UHGV virus genome: UHGV-0040703
DNA from: a virus
DNA length: 12,371 nt
Reading direction: 5' to 3' (one strand)
Each line of letters begins with the position of its first letter. Positions within the stretch are counted from its first letter, which is position 1. A model generated the notes under the pieces. The model had not been told where the DNA came from, ran no database searches, and was given only the letters and a program-made list of their open reading frames with translations. Position numbers and translations under genes: made by a program. Of the stretch, positions 1 to 12,371 are shown in pieces.

Positions 1-57
1 AAAACACAACCCGCTACGGGGGAGACTTACCCGAAATCTGATTTATTCAACAAAGCC
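1..57. mobile_element. End (terminal inverted repeat plus adjacent interior) of an IS903-family insertion sequence; the element body lies left of the window
   Basis: Reverse complement of 40..57 is GGCTTTGTTGAATAAATC, the 18-bp terminal IR of IS903 as recalled from Tn903-derived vectors. Sequence beyond the IR differs from the Tn903 IRL end, so this is the other end or a close relative. The IR abuts an interrupted hsdS frame at 58. Confidence 0.6.
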
Positions 58-124
58 CCCCCAATGGCAACCACTCAACCTCAACCCCATCCAGCAATTT
101 TTCCAGATAACTCATCTCGCTCAT
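58..124 (-). pseudogene. hsdS: 5' remnant of a type I specificity subunit gene (hsdS), 22 codons, truncated by the IS end
   Basis: Minus-strand ATG at 124..122 overlaps the hsdM stop (ATGA) and encodes [22 protein letters not shown], which matches the recalled EcoR124-type HsdS N-terminus. The frame runs straight into the IS IR, then stops after 3 codons. Confidence 0.55.
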
Positions 125-1683
125 TTCTGCACCTCGCAGCCTTCAATTTCAGCCACAATCGCATCAATATCTTTGCGCAACTGGTCGATTTTGCTGACCG
201 TGGTTTTCAGTTCTGCATTCAACTCAGCGATATCGATAATTTCGCGAGTATCTTTCGCTTCCACATAGCTGCTCACTGACAGGTTATAGTCATTAGCGAC
301 AACGGTCTCAAACGCGACAGATTTCGCCAGATGAGCAACATCTTCCTTGCTGGCAAATACCTGCATAATCTGTTCGATATGGGCATCGGTCAGGATATTG
401 TTGTTAGTCTCTTTTTTGAATAGCTCGCTGGCGTCAATAAACTGAACGTTGGTATCGGTTTTATGTTTAGACAGCACCAGAATGTTTACGGCAATGGTGG
501 TGCCAAAGAACAGGTTCGGAGCCAGTGAAATCACGGTTTCGACATAGTTATTATCGACCAGATACTGACGGATTTTCTGCTCCGCGCCGCCACGGTAAAA
601 AATACCCGGGAAGCAGACAATCGCAGCACGACCTTTGGCCGAAAGATAGTTCAGCGCATGTAATACAAACGCAAAGTCAGCTTTGGATTTGGGGGCCAGA
701 ACGCCAGCCGGGGCAAAACGTTCATCGTTAATCAGCGTCGGGTCATCGCTGCCAATCCATTTCACCGAATACGGCGGGTTAGAAACGATGGCATCAAACG
801 GTTTTTCATCTCTGAAGTGCGGTTCAGTCAGCGTATTGCCCAGCTTGATATCAAACTTGTCGTAGTTGATGTTGTGCAAAAACATGTTCATACGCGCCAG
901 GTTATAGGTCGTATGGTTGATTTCCTGACCAAAAAAACCTTCTTCGATGATATGGTCATCAAACTGTTTTTTAGCCTGCAACAACAGCGAACCGGAGCCT
1001 GCTGCCGGGTCGTAGATTTTGTTAACGTGGGTCTGCCCGTGCATAGCCAGTTGTGCAATCAGCTTAGAGACGTGCTGCGGTGTAAAGAACTCGCCGCCTG
1101 ACTTACCGGCATTTGCCGCATAGTTAGAGATCAGGAACTCATAGGCATCACCGAACAGGTCAATCTGATGTTCGTTGAAGTCACCAAGTTTTAACCCTTC
1201 AACCCCTTTCAGAACCGCAGCCAGGCGGGCATTTTTATCTTTAACGGTGTTACCCAGGCGGTTACTGGTGGTATCGAAATCAGCAAACAAACCTTTGATG
1301 TCAGCTTCTGAAGGATAACCGTAAGCAGAACTTTCGATAGCAACGAAGATGCTGTTTAAATCTGCATTCAGTCTGTCATTGGTATTTGCTTTCGCAGCCA
1401 CGTTGCAGAAAAGCTGACTTGGGTAGATGAAGTAGCCTTTGGTTTTGATGGCATCGTCTTTAATGTCATCAGTAATTACGCTGTCATCCAGTTTCGCATA
1501 ACAGATACTGTCATCACCGGCTTCAATATAACTGGAAAAATTTTCGCTGATAAAACGGTAGAAAAGTGCGCCCAGAACGTATTGCTTAAAATCCCATCCA
1601 TCGACCGAACCCCTGACATCGTTAGCAATTTGCCAGATTTGACGATGAAGCTCTGCACGTTGTTGAATACTTGTCATTTTCAT
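121..1683 (-). CDS. hsdM: Type I restriction-modification DNA methyltransferase subunit HsdM (N6-adenine), EcoR124-like type IC family
   Basis: 520-aa ORF with AdoMet-binding motif [10 protein letters not shown] and catalytic NPPY (in SNPPYSVKW). N-terminus [25 protein letters not shown] matches the recalled R124-family HsdM. Its stop overlaps the hsdS start. Confidence 0.9.
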
Positions 1684-1822
1684 CCACTTATTTCAGGCTT
1701 ATGTAATTGGATGTGATTCTACAGCAACTTGGATGCTTTAGCAGTTCGGACATTAGGCTACGAATGACCTGCCTAGAGGTTTGTTAAGCCGCAAAGTGCT
1801 GGTGCTTTATGCCTGTGAAGTT

Positions 1823-1853
1823 TATAATTGTGTACACATAACGAGTACACGAG
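1823..1853 (+). promoter_or_regulatory. phd/doc promoter -10 and operator palindromes
   Basis: TATAAT at 1823..1828, immediately followed by the perfect 10-bp palindrome TGTGTACACA (1829..1838) and a second GTACAC site (1845..1850), just upstream of the phd start. Consistent with Phd/Doc autoregulation at palindromic operators. Confidence 0.55.
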
Positions 1854-1859
1854 GTGTTT

Positions 1860-2081
1860 ATGCAATCCATTAACTTCCGTACCGCGCGTGGCAACCTTTC
1901 TGAAGTGCTCAACAATGTTGAGGCCGGGGAAGAGGTTGAAATCACCCGCAGAGGCCGTGAGCCAGCAGTAATTGTCAGCAAGGCTACTTTCGAAGCCTAC
2001 AAAAAAGCGGCGCTGGATGCTGAATTTGCATCCCTGTTTGACACCCTGGACTCCACCAACAAGGAACTGGTTAACCGATAA
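1860..2081 (+). CDS. phd: Phd antitoxin (prevent host death), 73 aa
   Basis: Translation [49 protein letters not shown]... matches recalled P1 Phd. Its stop overlaps the doc start (TAATG). Confidence 0.95.
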
Positions 2082-2461
2082 TGAGGCATATATCACCGGA
2101 AGAACTTATTGCGCTTCATGATGCGAATATAAACCGCTACGGCGGCCTGCCGGGAATGTCAGATCCGGGTAGGGCAGAGGCCATTATCGGGAGAGTTCAG
2201 GCCAGAGTTGCCTACGAAGAGATCACCGACCTTTTCGAAGTCTCCGCCACCTACCTGGTGGCTACGGCGAGAGGGCATATATTCAATGATGCCAATAAGC
2301 GTACCGCGCTAAACAGTGCGCTGTTATTTCTACGCCGTAACGGGGTGCAGGTATTTGATTCACCTGAACTGGCAGACCTTACCGTAGGGGCTGCGACTGG
2401 CGAGATATCTGTATCTTCTGTCGCCGCCACGTTACGTAGATTGTATGGTTCTGCGGAGTAG
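2081..2461 (+). CDS. doc: Doc toxin (death on curing; Fic-fold kinase targeting EF-Tu), 126 aa
   Basis: 126-aa [28 protein letters not shown]... translationally coupled to phd; matches recalled P1 Doc. Confidence 0.95.
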
Positions 2462-2465
2462 ATTA

Positions 2466-2645
2466 ATGGCACGCAAATACAACAAATTGTCCCGTGAAGC
2501 GTTAAAGATGCTTCTTGATGGCGTGAGTCGCCGCAAGGTAAAGCAATACCTGGTTGGTAAGCAAATTGGTGCCAGGACCGCTATTGCTGTGTTATGCCGT
2601 CAGGAAATGGCTGTGCTTAAACAGAGAATGCCGGGCAGCAGATAA
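2466..2645 (+). CDS. pdcB: Small basic protein, probable HTH DNA-binding (post-doc gene pdcB-like), 59 aa
   Basis: ATG at 2466 preceded by GGAG. Position immediately downstream of doc matches the P1 gene order phd-doc-pdcB-pdcA-lpa. Identity is assigned by synteny, not by remembered sequence. Confidence 0.6.
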   Translation: MARKYNKLSREALKMLLDGVSRRKVKQYLVGKQIGARTAIAVLCRQEMAVLKQRMPGSR

Positions 2646-2672
2646 AGCCCAATCAGTGATTAAAGGTGTGAT

Positions 2673-3716
2673 GTGAAAGCCGTAATTACTCCCTTTGTAC
2701 AGAAAGAGCTTGGCCTCGCCACGTTCAAAGTGGATCAGGAGGTCAGAAAGCTGGTGGAGGCTGGCCGTAAATTTATTATGGAGCCGGTGCCGCGTGAGTT
2801 AATCGAGCACATGGAAGACGGCCTCGTTGTTACCGAGCAAACCATGGCAACAAATGAGGCGTTGCAGCCGTTTTTTAACAGCGATGAACTGTTTCGCCGT
2901 ATTGGTGGAATTGACGCGCTGGTGGCGTGGTTGCGTAGGAAAGAGGGTCAATGCCAGGCCGCAGATCGTAGTTGGTGTGACAACCATATTGTCCACGCTG
3001 AACGAGACAATAGCGCTGTGTTGTTGTGCTGGCATCACGATAACCATTACCGGATGCGTGGTTTTAATGAGCTGAAAGAAACGCTGCACAATAATCGCGT
3101 TAACTGGATACTGGATGTCGCCCGTCAGGAAATGGGCCTTTCAAATAGCCATGATTTAAGTATTCAGGAGCTGTGCTGGTGGGCTTTCATGCGCAACATG
3201 ATGCACCTGATGCCGGAAGAAGTCTGCCGCATATCAATAAATAAGATGAAGGCTACTCCGCAGGATAGCGGACCTCTGAAAGAGGCGGATATTCGCCCGT
3301 ATGACGATCGCGCTACAGCATATGTTCAGATGATGGAAGAACGCGCCGCGCCGATGCGTGCAAAAGTATGCCCTGTGGATGTTGACTCCGACCCAGGTAT
3401 GGCGCATTTCAAAATACCAAAACTTCAATCGCTAAAATTGCCCGAGTACATGGACTTTGTGGCTTCCCGTCCATGCTGTGGCTGTGGAGCTGCGGGAGCT
3501 GGCGCTCACATTACGCCTTATATCGTTCGTCATAGTCGATTATGCGCGCATGACATTTATGCTATTCCTCTGTGCCAGTCATGCCAGCGTGATATTGAGC
3601 GTGACCGCGATAATTGGGAGAAGACGCACGGCAGGCTGGCGATGCATCAACGATTGTTCTTTGATTACGCGCTTGGAGTCGGCGCTATCACAAGTCACTC
3701 GTCGAGCGTTAGATAA
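2673..3716 (+). CDS. pdcA: Post-doc protein PdcA-like, 347 aa, with two Cys/His-rich clusters (possible zinc-binding, HNH-like)
   Basis: GTG start at 2673 with upstream AAAGGTG. Long ORF with Cys/His clusters around residues 94-125 and 270-305. Assigned by synteny between doc and lpa. Confidence 0.65.
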
Positions 3717-3717
3717 A

Positions 3718-3760
3718 ATTGCTCTAATGTATTGCTATTTCTTTAATCAAGGGTATTATA
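3718..3760 (+). promoter_or_regulatory. C1 operator overlapping a sigma70-like promoter for lpa
   Basis: ATTGCTCTAATGTATTG (3718..3734) matches 14 of 17 positions of the asymmetric C1 operator consensus ATTGCTCTAATAAATTT. -35 TTGCTA (3732..3737), 16-17 bp spacer, -10 TATTAT/ATTATA (3754..3760). Confidence 0.6.
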
Positions 3761-3804
3761 TTCGTCGTTGATTAGTTGACATGGGCTAATCAGTAGGTGA
3801 CAGG

Positions 3805-4257
3805 ATGTTACTTAACTGGCAGGGACGCCACTTCATGGAAATAAATCACTCACGAATAACATCGTACGAGATTGCGGATTACATGATCCGCACTAAATCT
3901 CTTCTATCAGCGAAAGAACTCGCAGCAATTCTTGAAAAGGAATACCCGCATCTGGATGTCGATAAGCGCGATGTTTATCTGCGCTTAAAGGCTATCGCTG
4001 TGTCTAAGTATTCGTCTGTTTTGATTGATGACAGTACACGCCCACGTAGATTTCAGATCCACTCTCTGAATCCTGAATTCTTTCGCCGTAGCCGCGCTCC
4101 GCGCCGGTTTGATGAAAAACTCCAGAACGAACTCTATATGACGCAGGACGAAAAGGAACGCCGGGAGCACCAGCCTTGGGTAATGGCGCGTCAACTTTTC
4201 AATAAGGTGGCCCGTCAGCACCGTCATTACGGTAATGCCACATCCGCACGTATCTGA
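3805..4257 (+). CDS. lpa: Late promoter activator Lpa (gene 10 product), about 150 aa
   Basis: ORF MLLNWQGRHFMEINHSRITSYEIADYMIRTK... with AGGTGA SD before the ATG at 3805 (alternative in-frame ATG at 3835). Position between pdcA and pacA and an upstream C1 operator fit P1 lpa. Confidence 0.8.
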   Translation: MLLNWQGRHFMEINHSRITSYEIADYMIRTKSLLSAKELAAILEKEYPHLDVDKRDVYLRLKAIAVSKYSSVLIDDSTRPRRFQIHSLNPEFFRRSRAPRRFDEKLQNELYMTQDEKERREHQPWVMARQLFNKVARQHRHYGNATSARI

Positions 4258-4280
4258 TTGATTGCTTGCCCGTTCCGGGC

Positions 4281-4330
4281 CTTTTGACATGTGACTTTCG
4301 TTACCCTCGCGTCAAAAAGAGTTTTATACG
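4281..4330 (+). promoter_or_regulatory. Candidate promoter region upstream of pacA (possibly an Lpa-dependent late promoter)
   Basis: Perfect TTGACA at 4284..4289; imperfect inverted repeat CTTTTGAC (4281..4288) / GTCAAAAA (4311..4318); TTATAC at 4324..4329 about 15 nt before the pacA SD (AAAGGAAG). Confidence 0.3.
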
Positions 4331-4343
4331 AAAGGAAGCATAA

Positions 4344-5537
4344 GTGACCTGGGACGATCACAAGAAGAATTTTGCTCGCCTGGCGCGAGATGGTGGTTAC
4401 ACCATCGCACAATATGCCGCCGAGTTTAATCTCAACCCAAACACCGCACGTCGTTATCTCCGTGCATTCAAAGAAGACACCGGAACAGCGGACAGCCGTA
4501 AGCCAAATAAGCCTGTCAGAAAACCACTAAAAAGCATGATCATTGATCACGCTAATGATCAACGTGCAAGTGATCACATTGTGGCTGAAATGGCTGAAAA
4601 ACAAAGAGTTAATGCTGTTGTCAGTGCCGCAGTCGAGAACGCTAAGCGCCAAAATAAGCGCATAAATGATCGTTCTGATGATCATGACGTGATCACCCGC
4701 GCCCACCGGACCTTACGTGATCGCCTGGAACGCGACACCCTGGATGATGATGGTGAACGCTTTGAATTCGAAGCTGGCGATTACCTGATAGATAACGTTG
4801 AAGCGCGGAAGGCCGCGCGCGCTATGTTGCGTCGATCCGGGGCCGATGTTCTGGAAACCACTCTTCTGGAAAAGTCTCTTTCTCATCTCCTTATGCTGGA
4901 GAACGCCAGGGATACGTGTATTCGCCTGGTGCAGGAAATGCGCGATCAGCAAAAAGACGATGATGAAGGTACTCCGCCTGAATACCGTATCGCGAGCATG
5001 CTAAACAGCTGTTCCGCGCAGATAAGCAGTCTGATCAACACCATTTACAGCATCCGGAATAACTATCGAAAAGAAAGCCGGGAGGCGGAAAAGCACGCTT
5101 TGTCTATGGGGCAAGCTGGCATTGTTAAGCTGGCATACGAACGAAAGCGTGAAAATAACTGGTCAGTGCTGGAAGCAGCTGAATTCATCGAGGCGCATGG
5201 CGGGAAAGTGCCGCCCCTGATGCTGGAGCAAATCAAAGCCGATCTGCGTGCTCCTAAGACCAATACCGATGATGAGGAAAGGCAAACAGCCGTCGGTGGC
5301 CCTTCTCTTGAAGATCTGGACAAAGTTGCGCGAGAACGGGCCGCCAACCGCCGCGCCGATGCCGCATTGTGGATTGAGCAGCGTAGGGAAGAAATCGCCG
5401 ATATCGTTGATACAGGCGGTTATGGAGATGTTGATACTGAAGGTGTATCAAACGACCCATGGCTGGAACAAGACCTGGACGAAGACGAGGAGGAAGACGA
5501 AGAAGTTACCCGCAAGCTATACGGGGATGATGATTAA
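4344..5537 (+). CDS. pacA: Packaging protein PacA (pacase/terminase small subunit), 397 aa
   Basis: GTG start with AAAGGAAG SD; translation [39 protein letters not shown]... The pac hexamer repeats lie inside its 5' portion, as in P1. Confidence 0.9.
4544..4733 (+). repeat. P1 pac site: seven TGATCA/TGATCG hexamers (each with a Dam GATC) in clusters of 3 and 4
   Basis: Hexamers at 4544, 4556, 4571 and at 4667, 4679, 4690, 4728. The 3+4 arrangement flanking the cleavage region matches the described P1 pac site. Confidence 0.85.
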
Positions 5538-7021
5538 TGGCCAGAAGTTGCGTAACGGATCCACGTTGGCGCGAGTTGGTGGCGCTATATCGTTATGACT
5601 GGATTGCGGCCGCTGATGTTTTGTTCGGCAAAACACCTACCTGGCAGCAGGATCTGATTATTGAGTCTGTGCAGGAACAGGGTAGCAAGACATCTGTTTC
5701 GTCTGGTCACGGTACCGGGAAATCAGACATGACTTCTATCATGATCATGTTGTTCATAATCATGTATCCCGGTGCCCGTGCCATTATCGTTGCGAACAAA
5801 ATTCAGCAGGTAATGACCGGTATATTCAAGTACATCAAGATAAACTGGGCTACGGCCACCAGCCGTTTTCCGTGGCTTGCTGATTATTTTGTTCTGACAG
5901 AAACCGCTTTTTATGAAGTTACTGGTAAAGGTGTATGGACTGTAGTACCGAAGGGCTTTCGTCTGGGAAGTGAATAAGCTCTCGCAGGTGAACACGCAGA
6001 TCATCTTCTGTATATTATCGATGAAGCCTCCGGTGTCAGTGATAGAGCTTTCGGTATCATCACCGGTGCTCTTACCGGACAGGATAACCGCATCTTATTG
6101 CTGTCACAGCCTACACGCCCAAGCGGCTATTTCTACGATACTCACCATAAACTGGCCAAGCGTCCTGGTAACCCTGATGGCGTTTATACGGCGATCACGC
6201 TTAACAGTGAGGAATCACCGCTGGTAACGCCAGCATTTATCAAAATGAAGCTGGCGGAGTACGGCGGGCGTGATAACCCTATGTACATGATTAAGGTACG
6301 CGGACTATTCCCTAAATCACAGGATGGCTTCCTTCTTGGACGTGATGAGGTTGAACGTGCGACGCGGCGGAAAGTCAAGATTGCCAAAGGATGGGGCTGG
6401 CTTGCATGTGTGGACGTTGCTGGTGGTACGGGACGGGATAAGTCCGTTATCAATATCATGATGGTGTCCGGCCAGAGAAATAAACGCCGTGTAATCAACT
6501 ATCGAATGCTGGAATACACAGACGTTACAGAAACGCAGCTTGCCGCCAAAATTTTCGCAGAATGTAATCCTGAGCGATTCCCAAATATCACCATAGCGAT
6601 AGACGGCGATGGCCTGGGTAAAGCAACGGCGGATCTGATGTACGAGTATTATGGTATTACCGTACAGCGTATACGCTGGGGTAAAAAGATGCATAGCCGT
6701 GAAGATAAGAGCCTGTACTTTGATAAACGTGCTTATGCCAACGTTCAAGCCGCAGAGGCCGTAAAATCTGGTCGTATGAGACTGGATAAGGGTAATGAAA
6801 CTATTGAGGAAGCGTCGAAAATCCCTGTAGGGATTAACTCCGCGGGTCAATGGAAAGTGATGAGTAAGGAGGATATGAAGAAAAAACTCAACCTGCACTC
6901 ACCAGACCATTGGGATACATATTGTTTCGCTATGCTGGCGGATTATGTTCCTCAGGATGAAGTGCTTAGCGTCGAAGACGAAGCGCAGGTTGATGAAGCT
7001 CTGGCATGGCTTAATGAATGA
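5537..7021 (+). pseudogene. pacB: pacB (terminase large subunit), interrupted by an in-frame TAA at 5975..5977
   Basis: One frame from 5537 to 7021 gives 494 codons, but codon 147 is TAA (..GFRLGSE*). The N-terminal fragment carries Walker A-like SGHGTGKS; the same frame resumes after the stop with [20 protein letters not shown] (Walker B). The ORF track splits it into 5537..5977 and 6098..7021. Confidence 0.75.
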
Positions 7022-7024
7022 ACA

Positions 7025-7067
7025 TTTGCTCTAATGAATTGTGTTTTTTAACTACCGATGTTACATT
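7025..7067 (+). promoter_or_regulatory. C1 operator-like 17-mer overlapping a candidate sigma70 promoter reading rightward
   Basis: TTTGCTCTAATGAATTG (7025..7041) matches 14 of 17 consensus positions. -35 TTGTGT (7039..7044), 17-bp spacer, -10 TACATT (7062..7067). Confidence 0.5.
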
Positions 7068-7173
7068 GAACCTGACCTCTTGCGCCTTGAGGCATTTTCG
7101 GTTTATGCTTATCAGGCACCTCATTAAAACGGGTGCCGGGATTGAGACCCCGGATAATGCAAAAGGCGACACA

Positions 7174-7195
7174 GACGCCAAAAGCGTCTTTTTTT
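7174..7195 (+). terminator. Rho-independent terminator (plus-strand)
   Basis: Stem AGACGC/GCGTCT around loop CAAAA, followed by T7 (7189..7195). Confidence 0.6.
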
Positions 7196-7221
7196 GTGTC
7201 ATGCCATCGCACAGCCATACG

Positions 7222-7340
7222 TAGCGTTTAGCTCAGAGATCAATGGTAGTGCTGGCTGGGCTGCCGAAAGGCAGGCCGGTTCCCTTTTGCGCCGGTAGTC
7301 TCAACCCAGTCAGTGCTACCGCCATTGAGATTGAGACCTC
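7222..7340 (+). ncRNA. Candidate structured regulatory RNA (c4-type antisense RNA candidate) upstream of the small ORF/antirepressor pair
   Basis: Long imperfect helix 7241..7260 with 7304..7326; internal GNRA hairpin CTGCC-GAAA-GGCAG (7261..7274); tRNA-like TAGCTCAG at 7229..7236. Two segments complement the downstream translation-initiation region: CCTTTTGC (7284..7291) with the SD GCAAAAGG (7362..7369), and CAATGG (7241..7246) with CCATTG (7376..7381) at the start codon. Confidence 0.4.
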
Positions 7341-7380
7341 ACGCGGTAGCTCCTTAAATTAGCAAAAGGAGGCTGCCATT

Positions 7381-7602
7381 GTGGCTACTATCCCTACCCC
7401 TGCTCATTCTGAATTTATCTGGCGCTTTTACTCCTGCCAAAAACGTCACTATCACTTCGTTATTGCACCGACAGAAGATGAGGCACGTTCTCAGCTTCCG
7501 GATGCTCCCTGTATTTTCTCTGCCCGCTTTTCTACCGATTCGCGCAATTCTCTCAGTTACTGGTGCCTCCCTATTAACGCTTCTGCTCAGGAGGGACTAT
7601 GA
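7381..7602 (+). CDS. Small protein, 73 codons, translationally coupled to the downstream antirepressor-like gene (icd-like position in an immI-type operon)
   Basis: GTG at 7381 eight nt after AAGGAGG (7366..7372); its stop overlaps the next ATG (ATGA at 7599..7602). An overlapping TTG-initiated frame (7379..7624) is the alternative. Confidence 0.45.
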   Translation: MATIPTPAHSEFIWRFYSCQKRHYHFVIAPTEDEARSQLPDAPCIFSARFSTDSRNSLSYWCLPINASAQEGL

Positions 7603-8711
7603 GAACGTCATTAGTCACCCGTGAAGAGATGATCGAGGCAATTGAACAGCACACTGCCTGTATCAGTACCAGGGATATACCGGGCGTTATTGCCAACTAC
7701 TTCATGATCACCAAACAACTTTACCGGAGAAAGGACAAACACGCGGTTCACCGCATTCTGCTAACCGATATCCGTGAATACCTGCTCGAACAGGGTCATC
7801 TGAATTACGCAACCGTCGCAGCCGAAGCACGCAAGGAGGCACACAGAATGAAAGCAACTAACGTTAAATCAGAAAAAATTTATGCACCTTCAGTTCAGGA
7901 ATCGGAACTGGTGGTTGTTCAGAATCAGCCGGATGAAATTCCCGTTCTGGAATGGCAGGGAGTACGTGTCGTGACAACCGAAACTCTTGCTAGAGGGTAT
8001 GGGGTCGATGAAGCCAATATTCGCAACAATTTGTCTCGCAACCTTGACCGCTTTGAAGAAGGTAAGCATTACTTTCTTCTAACTGGTTTAAAATTAAGAG
8101 AATTTAAGAACAGAGTAACCGGAAGTTACTCTGTTGGTAAGAACGCCAGAAGCCTTACACTCTGGACAGAGCGCGGCGCTGCACGCATGTCTAAGATCGT
8201 GGACACAAATGAAGCATGGGCATTCTTTGAAAAACTGGAAGACAGCTACTTCCGGCAAAAAGAACAGCAACCGGTTGCAATCCCCCAAACATTACCAGAA
8301 GCCCTACGCCTGGCTGCCGAACTGGCTGAACAAAAGCAGCTTCTGGAACAGAAAGCCCACCAGCTAAATCAGCAGCTGGTAGCCGCCGCTCCTAAGGTCG
8401 ATTTTGCCGACCGGGTATCAGTAGCTAAAGGGATCCTGATTGGGAATTTTGCAAAGGTTGTTGGACTTAAGCAAAACGCGCTGTTTGCCTGGTTACGGGA
8501 GAACGGCATCCTGATAGCGTCCGGTGGACGTAAAAATGTGCCGTTCCAGCAGTACATCAACGCGGGGTATTTCACGGTGAAAGAAGTGGTGCTGGATGAT
8601 GAAGATGGCTACCAGATACGGTTGACGCCTCAATTAACGGGTAAAGGCCAGCAGTGGTTGACGCGTAAACTGCTCGATGCTGGCTTGTTAAAACCGGTGG
8701 CGGCTGAATAA
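7599..8711 (+). CDS. ant: Antirepressor-like protein: ORF6N/KilA-N-type domain plus C-terminal KilAC domain, 370 aa, with nested in-frame start at 7848 (287 aa); Ant1/Ant2-type arrangement
   Basis: AGGAGG SD before the ATG at 7599; second strong SD AAGGAGG (7833..7839) before the in-frame ATG at 7848. Middle region VLEWQGVRVVTTETLARGYGVDEANI... resembles the ORF6N/Bro-N fold; C-terminal LPEALRLAAELAEQKQ...FADRVSVAKGILIGNFAKVVGLKQNALFAWLRENGIL...YINAGYFTVKEV resembles the KilAC signature. Confidence 0.65.
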   Translation: MRTSLVTREEMIEAIEQHTACISTRDIPGVIANYFMITKQLYRRKDKHAVHRILLTDIREYLLEQGHLNYATVAAEARKEAHRMKATNVKSEKIYAPSVQESELVVVQNQPDEIPVLEWQGVRVVTTETLARGYGVDEANIRNNLSRNLDRFEEGKHYFLLTGLKLREFKNRVTGSYSVGKNARSLTLWTERGAARMSKIVDTNEAWAFFEKLEDSYFRQKEQQPVAIPQTLPEALRLAAELAEQKQLLEQKAHQLNQQLVAAAPKVDFADRVSVAKGILIGNFAKVVGLKQNALFAWLRENGILIASGGRKNVPFQQYINAGYFTVKEVVLDDEDGYQIRLTPQLTGKGQQWLTRKLLDAGLLKPVAAE

Positions 8712-8718
8712 TGGAAGA

Positions 8719-8740
8719 ATGCCCGGTTGATGCCGGGCAT
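8719..8740. terminator. Hairpin between the convergent antirepressor-like gene and c1 (probable bidirectional terminator)
   Basis: 8-bp stem ATGCCCGG/CCGGGCAT with a 6-nt loop, flanked by AATTTATT on the plus strand and TCTTCCATTATT on the minus strand; lies between the stop codons at 8709..8711 and 8744..8746. Confidence 0.5.
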
Positions 8741-8743
8741 AAT

Positions 8744-9595
8744 TTATTGCGCGCTTTCGGGGTTGTCGTTTACTGGCTGCCCCTTCTTGGTTTTACGGCT
8801 GCGCGTAACTGATGCGGCTGACTTAACCTTTTTCTCTTCGCGAGTGATGGCAATTTGTTTTTTTACATTTTCAATATCTGCCAGGCGATATATTTTTGCT
8901 TGCGGCCAGCGGTCGCAGATGATCGGTTCTATGGAGTCATAAAGGCTAAATTTTGCTTTTTCGAATTCACCGTTGATGATAATTCCATCACGGAGAGTTT
9001 CATCGCAGATAAACACGCCACACAGTGGCACATGGTAACTAACTGATTTACCATCATTGTAGTTAGGGCTACTGGAAATGTAGTGGACGCGCAGCATTGT
9101 TTCGCTAAAGCCGTGTACGCGCATACGGAATTTTTCATCCTCCGGGTACTGCTTCATTAGCTCTTTTGTTGCTTCCAGGTTCTCTATGTATTTCGCACTG
9201 TGCTCATTGATCCCCGCGCTTTTTTGGATGCGAATATCCTTATCAATCAGATGAATAATGCGGCCAGCGGTCATGTTGACGCTGTTCACAGCCTCTGTCT
9301 GATAAGTTGTAACCTTACGCACACCGCGAAGGATGTTAGGCACTGGATATAAAATAGTCTTTGGGATATTGAGGTCTGGGTACTGTTCCAGTTCCCGCGC
9401 CATTAAAGTCCATTTATCAATTTCAGCCTGAATGCTGTCAGTTTCTTTGAACGGTAGAACGACAACCGGGCGTACAGGACGACCGTCGCTGGCTGTATCA
9501 ACGTGTTGGGCGCGTGCAACAGCTTTTTTTAGAAAGAGATCCCTGAAGCTGACGAACTCCTGGTACAGTTGTTCGCCGTAGACATAATTTATCAT
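8744..9595 (-). CDS. c1: C1 repressor of lysis (primary immunity repressor), 283 aa
   Basis: Translation MINYVYGEQLYQEFVSFRDLFLKKAVARAQHVDTASDGRPVRPVVVLPFKETDSIQAEIDKWTL... matches recalled P1 C1; 283 aa as in P1. Confidence 0.95.
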   Translation of the reverse strand: MINYVYGEQLYQEFVSFRDLFLKKAVARAQHVDTASDGRPVRPVVVLPFKETDSIQAEIDKWTLMARELEQYPDLNIPKTILYPVPNILRGVRKVTTYQTEAVNSVNMTAGRIIHLIDKDIRIQKSAGINEHSAKYIENLEATKELMKQYPEDEKFRMRVHGFSETMLRVHYISSSPNYNDGKSVSYHVPLCGVFICDETLRDGIIINGEFEKAKFSLYDSIEPIICDRWPQAKIYRLADIENVKKQIAITREEKKVKSAASVTRSRKTKKGQPVNDNPESAQ

Positions 9596-9689
9596 TGATC
9601 CTCCTCCAGAATTGACATGGCCAATAACGCCCGGCTGAGAAAACCGGTCATTACTGACCTATATTATAGAGGGATCAAACAAAAATAAT

Positions 9690-9706
9690 AGATTTATTAG
9701 TGCATT
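9690..9706 (-). promoter_or_regulatory. C1 operator-like site between coi and c1
   Basis: AGATTTATTAGTGCATT matches 14 of 17 positions of the reverse-complement consensus AAATTTATTAGAGCAAT. Confidence 0.4.
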
Positions 9707-9915
9707 TATTGTGAGTCTAACTGGTTAGTTGCCATGAGATATTCGATTGTGTCAGTGAGGTCATCCAGGTCGTCTTGGGTGATGCGGTACTCCTGATTGG
9801 ATATCTTTGAGTAGTGTTCAGCAATGGCGCGGGCAGCGTCGGTTTCGGCAGGGTCTACAGATAAAGCGTTAGAGCAATGTCTAACGTCGTCGATGGTTGG
9901 TTGAATGAAAGCCAT
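9706..9915 (-). CDS. coi: Coi, C1 inactivator, 69 aa
   Basis: 69-aa ORF MAFIQPTIDDVRHCSNALSVDPAETDAARAIAEHYSK... immediately upstream of c1 on the same strand, as in P1 immC. Confidence 0.85.
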   Translation of the reverse strand: MAFIQPTIDDVRHCSNALSVDPAETDAARAIAEHYSKISNQEYRITQDDLDDLTDTIEYLMATNQLDSQ

Positions 9916-10153
9916 AATTATGCCTCACTGTATTGACAACACAGAGCCTGAAGCTCTGACCTACTGTTTCACCCATGATCCATGCTGGGGTAATCTAACA
10001 ACATTGCGCTGTGTGTAAGATGAGCAATGCATAGCTGTAATGCCGTTGTATAAGGTTTCCCTGTTTGCTCATTTCCTTCTGAGCCGCTCTACAACGCTGA
10101 AGACACATTAAATAGTGAATCCAAAGTCGTATTACGTAACGGCGGCAAAACTA

Positions 10154-10170
10154 TAATTTATTAGAGCAAT
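10154..10170 (-). promoter_or_regulatory. C1 operator (Op99-type), minus orientation
   Basis: TAATTTATTAGAGCAAT matches 16 of 17 positions of the reverse-complement consensus. Confidence 0.65.
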
Positions 10171-10236
10171 TGTCAAACAACTATGAAAAACAATCCAGTT
10201 TTTGGCTGGTGGAGTGGGATTTTTCTCTCAAAATTT

Positions 10237-10253
10237 ATTGCTCTAATAATTCT
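10237..10253 (+). promoter_or_regulatory. C1 operator (Op99-type), plus orientation
   Basis: ATTGCTCTAATAATTCT matches 15 of 17 consensus positions. Confidence 0.65.
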
Positions 10254-10296
10254 TGATTTTTATGCGCAGCTGGACGTAAACTCCTCTTCGGACCTA

Positions 10297-10330
10297 ATAA
10301 CTTCGTATAGCATACATTATACGAAGTTAT
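10297..10330. other. loxP site for Cre recombination (13-bp inverted arms, 8-bp spacer)
   Basis: Exact ATAACTTCGTATA-GCATACAT-TATACGAAGTTAT. Confidence 0.98.
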
Positions 10331-10349
10331 CTTAAGGGTTATTGAATAT

Positions 10350-10479
10350 GATCAATTTACCTGTAAATCCATACAGTTCAATACCTTAGCAGGTCAAATA
10401 GTGATCATTTGATCAAGGTTGCGCTACGTAAAATCTGTGAAAAGTTGGCGGTGTTAGTCCTACAGATTTCGCGTAGCGC
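10350..10479 (+). promoter_or_regulatory. cre upstream regulatory region: Dam GATC cluster and an 18-bp imperfect inverted repeat
   Basis: GATC at 10350, 10403 and 10411 (TGATCATTTGATCA); inverted repeat GCGCTACGTAAAATCTGT (10421..10438) / ACAGATTTCGCGTAGCGC (10462..10479) with a 23-nt spacer. Dam-sensitive cre promoters have been described for P1. Confidence 0.4.
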
Positions 10480-10511
10480 ACTTAGCACCACCAATCAATC
10501 AGAGGTGAAAA

Positions 10512-10733
10512 ATGGGATATTCAACTGCTAAAGTGTCCACTCATCTTGAGCTTGAGAAAAACCGTGGTTACTGGCGGGCAAAAGGGTTTGATCGTGATAG
10601 TTGCCAACTGTCATTATCGCGCGGTGAAGAGAAAATAGAACGCACGCGCGGTCGCTGGCGTTTCTATGACGAGAACCATAAACAGGTAAAGGCAGAGCCG
10701 ATCCTGTACACTTTACTTAAAACCATCATCTGA
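10512..10733 (+). CDS. Hypothetical small basic protein (73 aa) immediately upstream of cre
   Basis: ATG at 10512 four nt after GAGGTG; its stop is 7 nt before the cre ATG. No recognised family; I do not recall it as an annotated P1 gene. Confidence 0.3.
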   Translation: MGYSTAKVSTHLELEKNRGYWRAKGFDRDSCQLSLSRGEEKIERTRGRWRFYDENHKQVKAEPILYTLLKTII

Positions 10734-10740
10734 GTGTTAA

Positions 10741-11772
10741 ATGTCCAATTTACTGACCGTACACCAAAATTTGCCTGCATTACCGGTCGATGCAACGAGT
10801 GATGAGGTTCGCAAGAACCTGATGGACATGTTCAGGGATCGCCAGGCGTTTTCTGAGCATACCTGGAAAATGCTTCTGTCCGTTTGCCGGTCGTGGGCGG
10901 CATGGTGCAAGTTGAATAACCGGAAGTGGTTTCCCGCAGAACCTGAAGATGTTCGCGATTATCTTCTATATCTTCAGGCGCGCGGTCTGGCAGTGAAAAC
11001 TATCCAGCAACATTTGGGCCAGCTAAATATGCTTCATCGTCGGTCCGGGCTGCCACGACCAAGTGACAGCAATGCTGTTTCACTGGTCATGCGACGGATC
11101 CGAAAAGAAAACGTTGATGCCGGTGAGCGTGCAAAACAGGCGCTGGCGTTCGAACGCACTGATTTCGACCAGGTTCGTTCACTCATGGAAAATAGCGATC
11201 GCTGCCAGGATATACGTAATCTGGCATTTCTGGGGATTGCTTATAACACCCTGTTACGTATAGCCGAAATTGCCAGGATCAGAGTTAAAGATATCTCACG
11301 TACTGACGGTGGGAGAATGTTAATCCATATTGGCAGAACGAAAACGCTGGTTAGCACCGCTGGTGTAGAGAAGGCACTTAGTCTGGGGGTAACTAAACTG
11401 GTTGAGCGATGGATTTCTGTCTCTGGTGTGGCTGATGATCCGAATAACTACTTGTTTTGCCGTGTCAGAAAAAATGGTGTTGCCGCGCCATCTGCCACCA
11501 GCCAGCTATCAACTCGCGCCCTGGAAGGGATTTTTGAAGCAACTCACCGATTGATTTACGGGGCTAAGGATGACTCTGGCCAGAGGTACCTGGCCTGGTC
11601 TGGACACAGTGCCCGTGTCGGAGCCGCGCGAGATATGGCCCGCGCCGGAGTTTCAATACCGGAGATCATGCAAGCTGGTGGCTGGACCAACGTAAATATT
11701 GTCATGAACTATATCCGTAACCTGGATAGTGAAACAGGGGCAATGGTGCGCCTGCTGGAAGATGGCGATTAG
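10741..11772 (+). CDS. cre: Cre tyrosine site-specific recombinase, 343 aa
   Basis: Translation MSNLLTVHQNLPALPVDATSDEVRKNLMDMFRDRQAFSEHTWKMLLSVCRSWAAWCKLNNRKWFPAEPEDVRDYLLYLQARGLAVKTIQQHLGQLNMLHRRSGLPRPSDSNAVSLVMRRIRKENVDAGERAKQALAFERTDFDQVRSLMENSDRCQDIRNLAFLGIAYNTLLRIAEIARIRVKDISRTDGGRMLIHIGRTKTLVSTAGVEKALSLGVTKLVERWISVSGVADDPNNYLFCRVRKNGVAAPSATSQLSTRALEGIFEATHRLIYGAKDDSGQRYLAWSGHSARVGAARDMARAGVSIPEIMQAGGWTNVNIVMNYIRNLDSETGAMVRLLEDGD is P1 Cre. Confidence 0.98.
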   Translation: MSNLLTVHQNLPALPVDATSDEVRKNLMDMFRDRQAFSEHTWKMLLSVCRSWAAWCKLNNRKWFPAEPEDVRDYLLYLQARGLAVKTIQQHLGQLNMLHRRSGLPRPSDSNAVSLVMRRIRKENVDAGERAKQALAFERTDFDQVRSLMENSDRCQDIRNLAFLGIAYNTLLRIAEIARIRVKDISRTDGGRMLIHIGRTKTLVSTAGVEKALSLGVTKLVERWISVSGVADDPNNYLFCRVRKNGVAAPSATSQLSTRALEGIFEATHRLIYGAKDDSGQRYLAWSGHSARVGAARDMARAGVSIPEIMQAGGWTNVNIVMNYIRNLDSETGAMVRLLEDGD

Positions 11773-11822
11773 CCATTAACGCGTAAATGATTGTTCTAAT
11801 TCTTTGATATTTATGGTGACAT

Positions 11823-12134
11823 ATGAGAAAGGATTTCAACATCGACGGAAAATATGTAGTGCTGTCTGTAAGCACTAATATTCAGTCGCCAGCCGTCATT
11901 GTCACTGTAAAGCTGAGCGATAGAATGCCTGATATTGACTCAATATCCGTTGCGTTCCCTGTCAAAAGTATGCGTGGTGCTGAACATTTCGTGATGAATG
12001 CCACCGAGGAAGAAGCACGGCGCGGTTTTGCTAAAGTAGTGTCTGACTTTGGCGAACTCTTGGATAAGGTTAACAATGTCCTTTCAATCAGTTCAGCAAG
12101 GTCCAAAGCGTTAACAGCTTCCATGATGAAATAA
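11823..12134 (+). CDS. cra: Cre-associated small protein (cra-like), 103 aa
   Basis: ORF directly downstream of cre with GGTGA before the ATG; assigned by synteny with P1 (cre then cra). Confidence 0.55.
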   Translation: MRKDFNIDGKYVVLSVSTNIQSPAVIVTVKLSDRMPDIDSISVAFPVKSMRGAEHFVMNATEEEARRGFAKVVSDFGELLDKVNNVLSISSARSKALTASMMK

Positions 12135-12158
12135 AAAAAGCCTGGCAAGGAACCAGGC
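12133..12158 (-). terminator. Rho-independent terminator oriented for minus-strand transcripts
   Basis: Stem GCCTGG/CCAGGC around loop CAAGGAA, preceded on the plus strand by A7, which is a U7 tract after the hairpin on the minus strand. Confidence 0.55.
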
Positions 12159-12261
12159 TGCACAAAAGAGCGGGTTTGTGTTCCGCATCCAATCAATCAG
12201 AAAGGAGTATAGCACATAGATACTAAAGTGAAAAAATGTGACTGAAGATAAACAATATAAC

Positions 12262-12285
12262 ATTGCTCTAATTGATTGTTATAAT
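12262..12285 (+). promoter_or_regulatory. C1 operator-like site with adjacent -10 element (Op2-type position after cre/cra)
   Basis: ATTGCTCTAATTGATTG (12262..12278) matches 14 of 17 consensus positions; TATAAT at 12280..12285. Confidence 0.5.
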
Positions 12286-12316
12286 TGGGCCGTGGCGTTA
12301 GTCAACTACGAAGACG

Positions 12317-12371
12317 GGTAGTGACTCCAACTTACTGATAGTGTTTTATGTTCAGATAATGCCCGATGACC
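12317..12371. mobile_element. IS1 terminal inverted repeat and adjacent interior (IRR-type end); element continues beyond the window
   Basis: GGTAGTGACTCCAACTTACTGATAGTGTTTTATGTTCAGATAATGCCCGATGAC matches the recalled IS1 end GGTAATGACTCCAACTTATTGATAGTGTTTTATGTTCAGATAATGCCCGATGAC with 2 mismatches. Confidence 0.8.

Follow-up and report, generated by a model that had tools for sequence, protein, structure and literature searches.

An IS903B end and an IS1 end enclose a P1-type block in virus genome UHGV-0040703

Virus genome UHGV-0040703 is represented here by a stretch of 12,371 nucleotides (the window, by which we mean the whole stretch that was analysed), in which genes typical of bacteriophage P1 lie between the ends of two different insertion sequences (ISs). 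The locus therefore raises the question of whether these genes belong to an intact P1-like prophage or phage-plasmid, or are a piece of such an element delimited by IS activity. The initial annotation had favoured IS-mediated capture or deletion of part of a P1 genome; this conclusion stands, carried by the relatives of the window, by the IS903B junction and by a stop codon in pacB, although two of the arguments first offered for it, concerning ref and humD, do not. In our view the window is probably what remains of a P1-like phage-plasmid of the common hsdRMS type: a decaying fragment, delimited by ISs and belonging to the IS903B-bounded unit found in its 99.8% identical relatives, rather than an intact P1. 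This reading is preferred because hsdS is cut at codon 22, because pacB carries a nonsense codon, and because the complete genomes that share the IS903B junction contain no intact P1.

The two ends of the window

Both termini can be placed to the base, and the proposal that the window starts in an IS903-family end and finishes in an IS1 end is borne out. The left end (positions 1–57, plus strand) is the 3′ end of IS903B, a member of the IS5 family. It is 100% identical to both IS903B copies in each of the two closest complete relatives, a locus in the chromosome of Escherichia coli TUM14664 (NZ_CP135649; L003) and the plasmid pE102651_87 (NZ_CP189663.1; L004), which are annotated with an IS903B transposase at the matching place. 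Base 1 is the final base of the stop codon of the transposase gene, which otherwise precedes the window. The terminal inverted repeat, ...CTGATTTATTCAACAAAGCC, reaches to base 57. Next to it, at 59–124 on the minus strand, lies a stub of hsdS consisting of its first 22 codons, cut by IS903B; the stub was recognized by comparing its translation with the N terminus of intact HsdS, and is annotated as a partial S subunit in both relatives.

The right end (12317–12371) is the insB-proximal terminus of an IS1, assigned by identity to known IS1 ends and oriented such that insAB would read on the minus strand. Its sequence (GGTAGTGACTCCAACTTACTGATAG...) is 100% identical to the IS1 terminus beside a DDE_Tnp_IS1 gene in another relative, L009. 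The join is exact at the terminal inverted repeat: homology to P1 extends to 12316, the repeat, opening with GGTAGTGACTCCAACTTACTG..., begins at 12317, and the window closes 55 bp into the element.

The odd length of the window, together with ends that lie 57 and 55 bp inside repeats, suggests that it is a whole short-read contig broken at IS copies. That both of its ends are IS ends is then explained by the tendency of short-read contigs to break at repeats, and the junctions are not thereby unreal. A more radical version of this argument would make the bracketing itself an artefact, with one or both junctions chimeric. Ends inside multicopy ISs are indeed typical of de Bruijn contigs, two Logan contigs (L008 and L011) break off 27–28 bp inside the same left IS903B, and the IS1 junction has no independent match in any collection searched. 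However, the junction between IS903B and hsdS recurs with identical sequence in two genomes closed with long reads and in several independent drafts, P1 sequence gives way to IS1 precisely at the last base of the inverted repeat, as in a real insertion, and a contig break at a repeat does not falsify a junction. We regard chimerism at either end as highly improbable.

An IS903B-bounded unit in two complete genomes

The exact IS903B/hsdS junction is present in only two of 5,426 complete E. coli genomes, those with the TUM14664 chromosome and pE102651_87, and positions 1–12316 of the window are 99.8% identical to both (99.84% to the TUM14664 unit). Neither holds an intact P1 at this locus. Beside the block, the P1 replication and partition genes and the head, tail and lysis genes are absent from both, and the remainder of hsdS and hsdR is absent next to IS903B.

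In TUM14664, the block sits in the chromosome between proV and nrdF, in the order IS903B, hsdS stub, hsdM and onwards to c8, an island, a 5′-truncated ref, a 3′-truncated mat and a second IS903B. Each IS903B copy measures 1,057 bp; the two have the same sequence and are directly oriented, and the unit that they bound is 18,575 bp long with a 9-bp target duplication, GTTTCAGGC, on both outer sides. When the empty site is reconstructed with one copy of GTTTCAGGC, it proves contiguous in 5,412 of the 5,426 complete E. coli genomes, and in many of these the match is 100%. These data demonstrate that the whole TUM14664 unit transposed as an IS903B composite transposon.

The same IS903B-bounded unit is held by pE102651_87, a P1-derived plasmid of an enteropathogenic/enterotoxigenic E. 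coli (EPEC/ETEC) hybrid from the GEMS study in the Gambia; the paper on this strain, 102651, is a genome announcement without a plasmid analysis (PMC12697144). Here the right IS903B lies in mat as a simple insertion: the 9-bp GTTGGAACG occurs on both sides, and mat resumes beyond it. On the left, IS903B links the hsdS stub to P1-like DNA whose counterpart in an intact relative is found ~6 kb further along, an arrangement of the kind that an adjacent deletion leaves behind. Only 24.7 kb of pE102651_87, and none of the morphogenesis regions, is shared with pHNTH9F11-2, an intact P1-like plasmid, and pE102651_87 looks like a donor-type arrangement for the composite unit.

The succession of events shown by these structures begins with the insertion of IS903B into hsdS after codon 22; the arrangement in pE102651_87 fits a subsequent adjacent deletion of the rest of hsdS together with hsdR. 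A second IS903B inserted in mat, with the duplication GTTGGAACG seen in pE102651_87, and by classical composite transposition the two identical direct copies moved the 18,575-bp segment into the nrdF–proV spacer of TUM14664, giving the new duplication GTTTCAGGC. In the lineage of the window, pacB gained its nonsense codon; last, and in the window alone, an IS1 landed between the two ref promoters.

Composite transposons of the Tn903 type are flanked by inverted copies of IS903 and carry a resistance gene as passenger. The TUM14664 unit is like them in its two identical IS903B copies, its 9-bp duplication and the clean empty site elsewhere, but differs in that the copies are direct and that they carry, in place of a resistance gene, 16.5 kb of DNA from a phage-plasmid, with its addiction, immunity, Cre-lox and pac determinants. 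It offers a sequence-verified route by which part of a phage-plasmid can leave its replicon, two IS903B copies turning 16.5 kb of P1 DNA into a composite transposon. A literature search for an IS903B/P1 composite element found no specific description; composite transposons flanked by ISs are already established, as is decay in P1-like phage-plasmids, and the case is otherwise one of ordinary IS-driven decay.

P1-like phage-plasmids have been described to decay by gene loss into plasmids or integrated elements, with the cause of chromosomal integration left open and Cre-lox or a transposable element as candidates (Pfeifer and Rocha 2024, PMC10879196). As in that work, a P1-like element without phage functions persists on a plasmid (pE102651_87) or in the chromosome (TUM14664). 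By contrast with it, TUM14664 shows a specific route, and what moved is an IS903B-bounded sub-fragment of 18.6 kb with a target duplication, not a near-complete element.

pacB, the region upstream of ref and the hsd locus

The gene for the large terminase subunit, pacB (5537–7021, plus strand), contains an in-frame stop at 5975–5977, as revealed by comparison of its translation with the intact allele. This is a single-codon change, Glu147 to stop, which truncates the product to 146 aa and leaves the remaining frame open. A functional pacase is expected to have intact pacA and pacB, and in the window pacB is interrupted at codon 147; because no full-length PacB is encoded, it is unlikely that the element packages itself. 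The nonsense codon (61-bp centred query) was found in none of the 307 complete E. coli genome records that hold the region, all of which carry the intact codon. The 146-aa allele occurs on 62 contigs with E. coli as the named source, and 118 blocks drawn from draft or metagenome assemblies also have it; in 51 of these blocks the longest carrying contig measures 10–20 kb.

These findings bear on the alternative that the window comes from an otherwise complete P1-like phage-plasmid with two simple insertions, IS903B in hsdS and IS1 upstream of ref. Viable P1-like phages commonly carry ISs (P1 has IS1 and IS5, and SJ46 has IS903D). In L012, from a GEMS-era E. coli draft (positions 1–1450), the hsdS stub is adjoined by a 78-bp IS903 remnant, beyond which an internal part of hsdS is kept before an IS1 cuts the sequence, implying that the first event was an insertion into hsdS. 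However, the two complete genomes that share the junction lack the remaining hsdS and hsdR beside the IS, and the window is 99.8–99.98% identical to remnants, the upper value applying to the draft contigs L010 and L011, from each of which it is two bases apart. Moreover, the pacB nonsense codon would leave even a full genome defective in packaging.

Some observations nevertheless weigh against the window being a fragment. A Logan contig of 46,401 bp (L021, from SRR11484344) joins the pacB nonsense allele to an intact hsdR-hsdS-hsdM locus upstream, and a more complete element with this allele may therefore exist. In addition, only one IS903B end lies inside the window, both copies being seen in TUM14664 and pE102651_87, and any second IS903B, truncated ref and mat and flanking replicon of this sequence would lie outside these 12.4 kb. 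L021 stops 27 bp after the pacB stop codon, likely because the assembly graph forks there between two pacB alleles of a single sample, in which an intact P1-like plasmid may coexist with the remnant. The linkage, which may be an assembly-graph artefact, is unreliable at this distance, and L021 was not accepted as proof of a complete element with the nonsense allele. On balance, a complete phage-plasmid with two simple insertions is unlikely, and we retain the interpretation of the window as a decaying, IS-delimited fragment.

At the right end, homology to P1 breaks at window position 12316, equivalent to P1 coordinate 2016. This point lies between the −10 box of P2ref (P1 1980–1985) and the −35 box of P1ref (P1 2017–2022), one base ahead of the latter. 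The bases leading up to it (12262–12316, plus strand) comprise the Oref operator (12262–12278), the P2ref −10 box and the last P1 bases before IS1, as identified by operator scan, P1 annotation and alignment. The ref ATG lies 60 bp past the break in P1 and 62 bp past it in the intact relative pHNTH9F11-2. The window thus closes 55 bp into an IS1 that is inserted 60 bp ahead of the ref start, and for this reason alone ref is not visible. It had been argued that the lack of ref after the Op2-type operator pointed to rearrangement; ref is indeed not in the window, but its absence is an edge effect of IS1 and the window end and lends the argument no support.

Nor is this a position at which an IS1 is known in P1. 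The resident IS1 of P1 occupies P1 22626–23393, at 22.6 kb between isaA and isaB and not upstream of ref, and on this ground was rejected as the source of the right end. The two elements belong to the same IS family within P1-type DNA and are 94.5% identical over the visible end, but they are different isoforms at sites ~20 kb apart on the P1 map. Exact-pattern scans of GTDB genomes, JGI metagenomes and IMG/VR gave no match to the P1/IS1 junction, and 70-bp queries against complete E. coli genomes, phages and PLSDB plasmids returned matches to IS1 alone. Among the collections searched, IS1 is a secondary insertion specific to the window.

The draft contig L010 runs past the equivalent of 12316 with 17 further P1 bases and then enters the same island as TUM14664; the sequence following the break point in both is TGGCCATTACC... 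Since L010 continues here without interruption, the IS1 of the window is an extra insertion a few bases before the island. If it is a simple insertion in the unit, the sequence expected beyond IS1 is a repeat of ~9 bp, ...ACGAAGACG, and then TGGCCATTACCTACTT...

The island, which starts 17 bp after the site of the window IS1, is ~3.4 kb long (L003 27333–30688; also in L004, L006, L007 and L013) and stands in place of P1ref and the first third of ref. It contains a degenerate resolvase, an SnoaL-like ester cyclase, a GlxA/AraC-type regulator and an MBL-fold hydrolase. In the non-coding P2ref region, 29 bp before the IS1 insertion, position 12288 is G in the window and A in all four of the other compared contigs that cover it (L007, L008, L010 and L013); no other difference is specific to the window.

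IS1 elements form cointegrates and adjacent deletions. The IS1 of the window might accordingly mark a replicon fusion through an IS1-mediated cointegrate, or an IS1-mediated deletion, with foreign DNA beyond it. IS1 copies truncate P1 DNA at other points in L009, where pdcB is cut, and in L012, and the carriers are rich in ISs: a query with the whole window hit 39 places in the chromosome of TUM14664, and five IS1 transposase genes are annotated in pE102651_87. Yet nothing in the window separates a fusion or deletion from a simple insertion, the far end of IS1 lying outside it, and we consider a fusion or deletion doubtful. The window IS1 fits a pattern in which strain-specific secondary IS insertions are usual for the unit. 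L012 (11330–11675) and L020, which has the same right-end gene pattern, depart from the window at the equivalent of position 9998, before loxP; the sequence that follows in L012 reads as an IS5-type end. In the European Nucleotide Archive (ENA) metagenome contig L006 (1–60), the left IS903B is truncated ~510 bp from its 3′ end by unrelated sequence.

At the left side of the block, hsdM encodes the methylase subunit of a type I restriction-modification system (121–1677, minus strand; Pfam N6_Mtase, 4.5e-121, and HsdM_N). Its open reading frame (ORF) is full length at 518 aa, or 520 aa if an in-frame ATG at 1683 is used. Neither hsdR nor the remainder of hsdS occurs in the window, whereas the P1-like plasmid locus L002 has the full hsdRMS. 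The window thus falls short of a complete type I system, having an intact hsdM, 22 codons of hsdS and no hsdR, and HsdM is an orphan that lacks its specificity subunit and is probably inactive. Although full length in the window and in several drafts, hsdM is annotated as frameshifted (1 bp shorter) in TUM14664 (L003 15121–16676) and pE102651_87 (L004 12121–13676). Individual copies of the unit have therefore decayed by different steps.

Homology to P1, P7 and SJ46 begins only at window positions 1778–1784, and in P1 and SJ46 it is humD that occupies the upstream side. The initial annotation had taken the replacement of humD by hsdM as a sign of rearrangement. The replacement is real, but the argument fails: the hsdM–phd junction (441-bp query, coverage of at least 80%) is present in 655 of the 5,426 complete E. 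coli genomes, and the same adjacency, with full hsdR-hsdS-hsdM, is found in ordinary P1-like plasmids and in the isolated phage vB_EcoM-673R5. An hsdRMS locus beside phd is a standard alternative module of P1-like phage-plasmids and no sign of IS activity, and hsdM in place of humD was rejected as evidence of IS rearrangement.

Gene content of the block and its relation to P1-like phage-plasmids

Between the IS ends lies one colinear P1-type block, running from hsdM through phd-doc, pdcAB, lpa, pacAB with pac, C4/icd/ant, c1, coi, loxP, cra, cre and c8 to Oref. P1, P7, SJ46 and RCS47 match it at 93–98%, and Pfam matches back HsdM, Phd, DUF968/PdcB, Lpa, Ant and Cre. The description of the region as a P1-type set (addiction, late activator, packaging, immunity and lox-cre) between IS ends is confirmed by this colinear homology, by loxP, the C1 operators and pac, and by the Pfam assignments; immunity (c1, coi and operators), lox-cre, lpa and the pac site are all present and colinear with P1.

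The closest known group is the hsdRMS subgroup of P1-like phage-plasmids (Punavirus), represented by pHNTH9F11-2 and vB_EcoM-673R5, in which the gene order is the same and nucleotide identity from hsdM through c8 is 96–98%. The window has phd-doc, lpa, pacAB with pac, c1/coi, loxP-cre and Oref in common with this subgroup. It differs from it in that hsdS is cut at codon 22, pacB has its nonsense codon and an IS1 lies between Oref/P2ref and ref; unlike in Punavirus, the block in the closest complete relatives is detached from the replication, partition and morphogenesis genes.

Following hsdM, all on the plus strand up to the immunity region, are the phd-doc addiction module (phd 1860–2081, doc 2081–2461; assigned from ORFs, annotation of relatives and Pfam), pdcA (2466–2645) and pdcB, a DUF968 gene (2673–3716; annotation of relatives and Pfam), the late promoter activator gene lpa (3805–4257; Pfam BPP1_LPA, 3.1e-57) and pacA (4344–5537; ORF and annotation of relatives). 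The pac site lies within pacA and consists of four plus three TGATCA/G hexamers, at 4537–4576 and 4667–4695 (overall span 4537–4695).

Between pacB and c1 is an immI-like module (7116–8711, plus strand), comprising an isrK-like RNA (7116–7194), the C4 antisense RNA (7239–7326), an icd-like gene (7381–7602) and ant (7599–8711). Rfam scores are 75 bits for C4 and 59 bits for isrK, both exceeding the gathering scores, and the antirepressor encoded by ant (370 aa) has Pfam ANT and ORF6N domains. An ORF annotated as ‘ash family’ in relatives, equivalent to 7243–7362, lies partly over the C4 RNA and may not be a true gene.

The c1 repressor gene (8744–9595) and coi (9706–9915) lie on the minus strand and were identified from ORFs and the annotation of relatives. 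Six C1-operator-like sites are present in the window, compared with 0.07 expected by chance, and include those at 9690, 10154 and 10237. loxP is a perfect 34-bp site (10297–10330, plus strand; no mismatches, none expected by chance), followed on the same strand by cra (10512–10733), cre (10741–11772; Pfam Phage_integrase) and c8 (11823–12134), assigned from ORFs and the annotation of P1 and its relatives.

Judged by their full-length ORFs and intact sites, Phd-Doc, C1/Coi, C4/Icd/Ant, Cre-loxP, pac and Lpa may still serve a carrier replicon, by stabilization, immunity to P1-type superinfection or recombination. A bolder reading, to which we give little credence, is that the IS903B-bounded fragment is a selected transposable cassette that spreads P1 immunity (C1 and C4/Icd/Ant), Phd-Doc, Cre-loxP and pac between plasmids and chromosomes. 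Were this so, the cassette would guard its host against P1-type superinfection and stabilize its carrier, and in a chromosome its loxP would serve as a docking site and its pac as a starting point from which an incoming P1-like phage could package adjacent host genes at high frequency. Independently of such a role, matches to P1 markers (cre, c1, phd-doc or pacA) in draft E. coli genomes do not equate to the presence of a P1-like prophage or plasmid, and a chromosomal loxP or pac could affect P1-based genetics and transduction in such strains.

The plasmid pE102651_87 (L004, L014 and L015) also carries chromosome-like cargo, namely a galF-to-gnd polysaccharide cluster with an ABC transporter and GDP-mannose/aminotransferase genes, most of the his operon, the bcsABC cellulose genes, a PerC-family regulator, an autotransporter and several IS1 copies.

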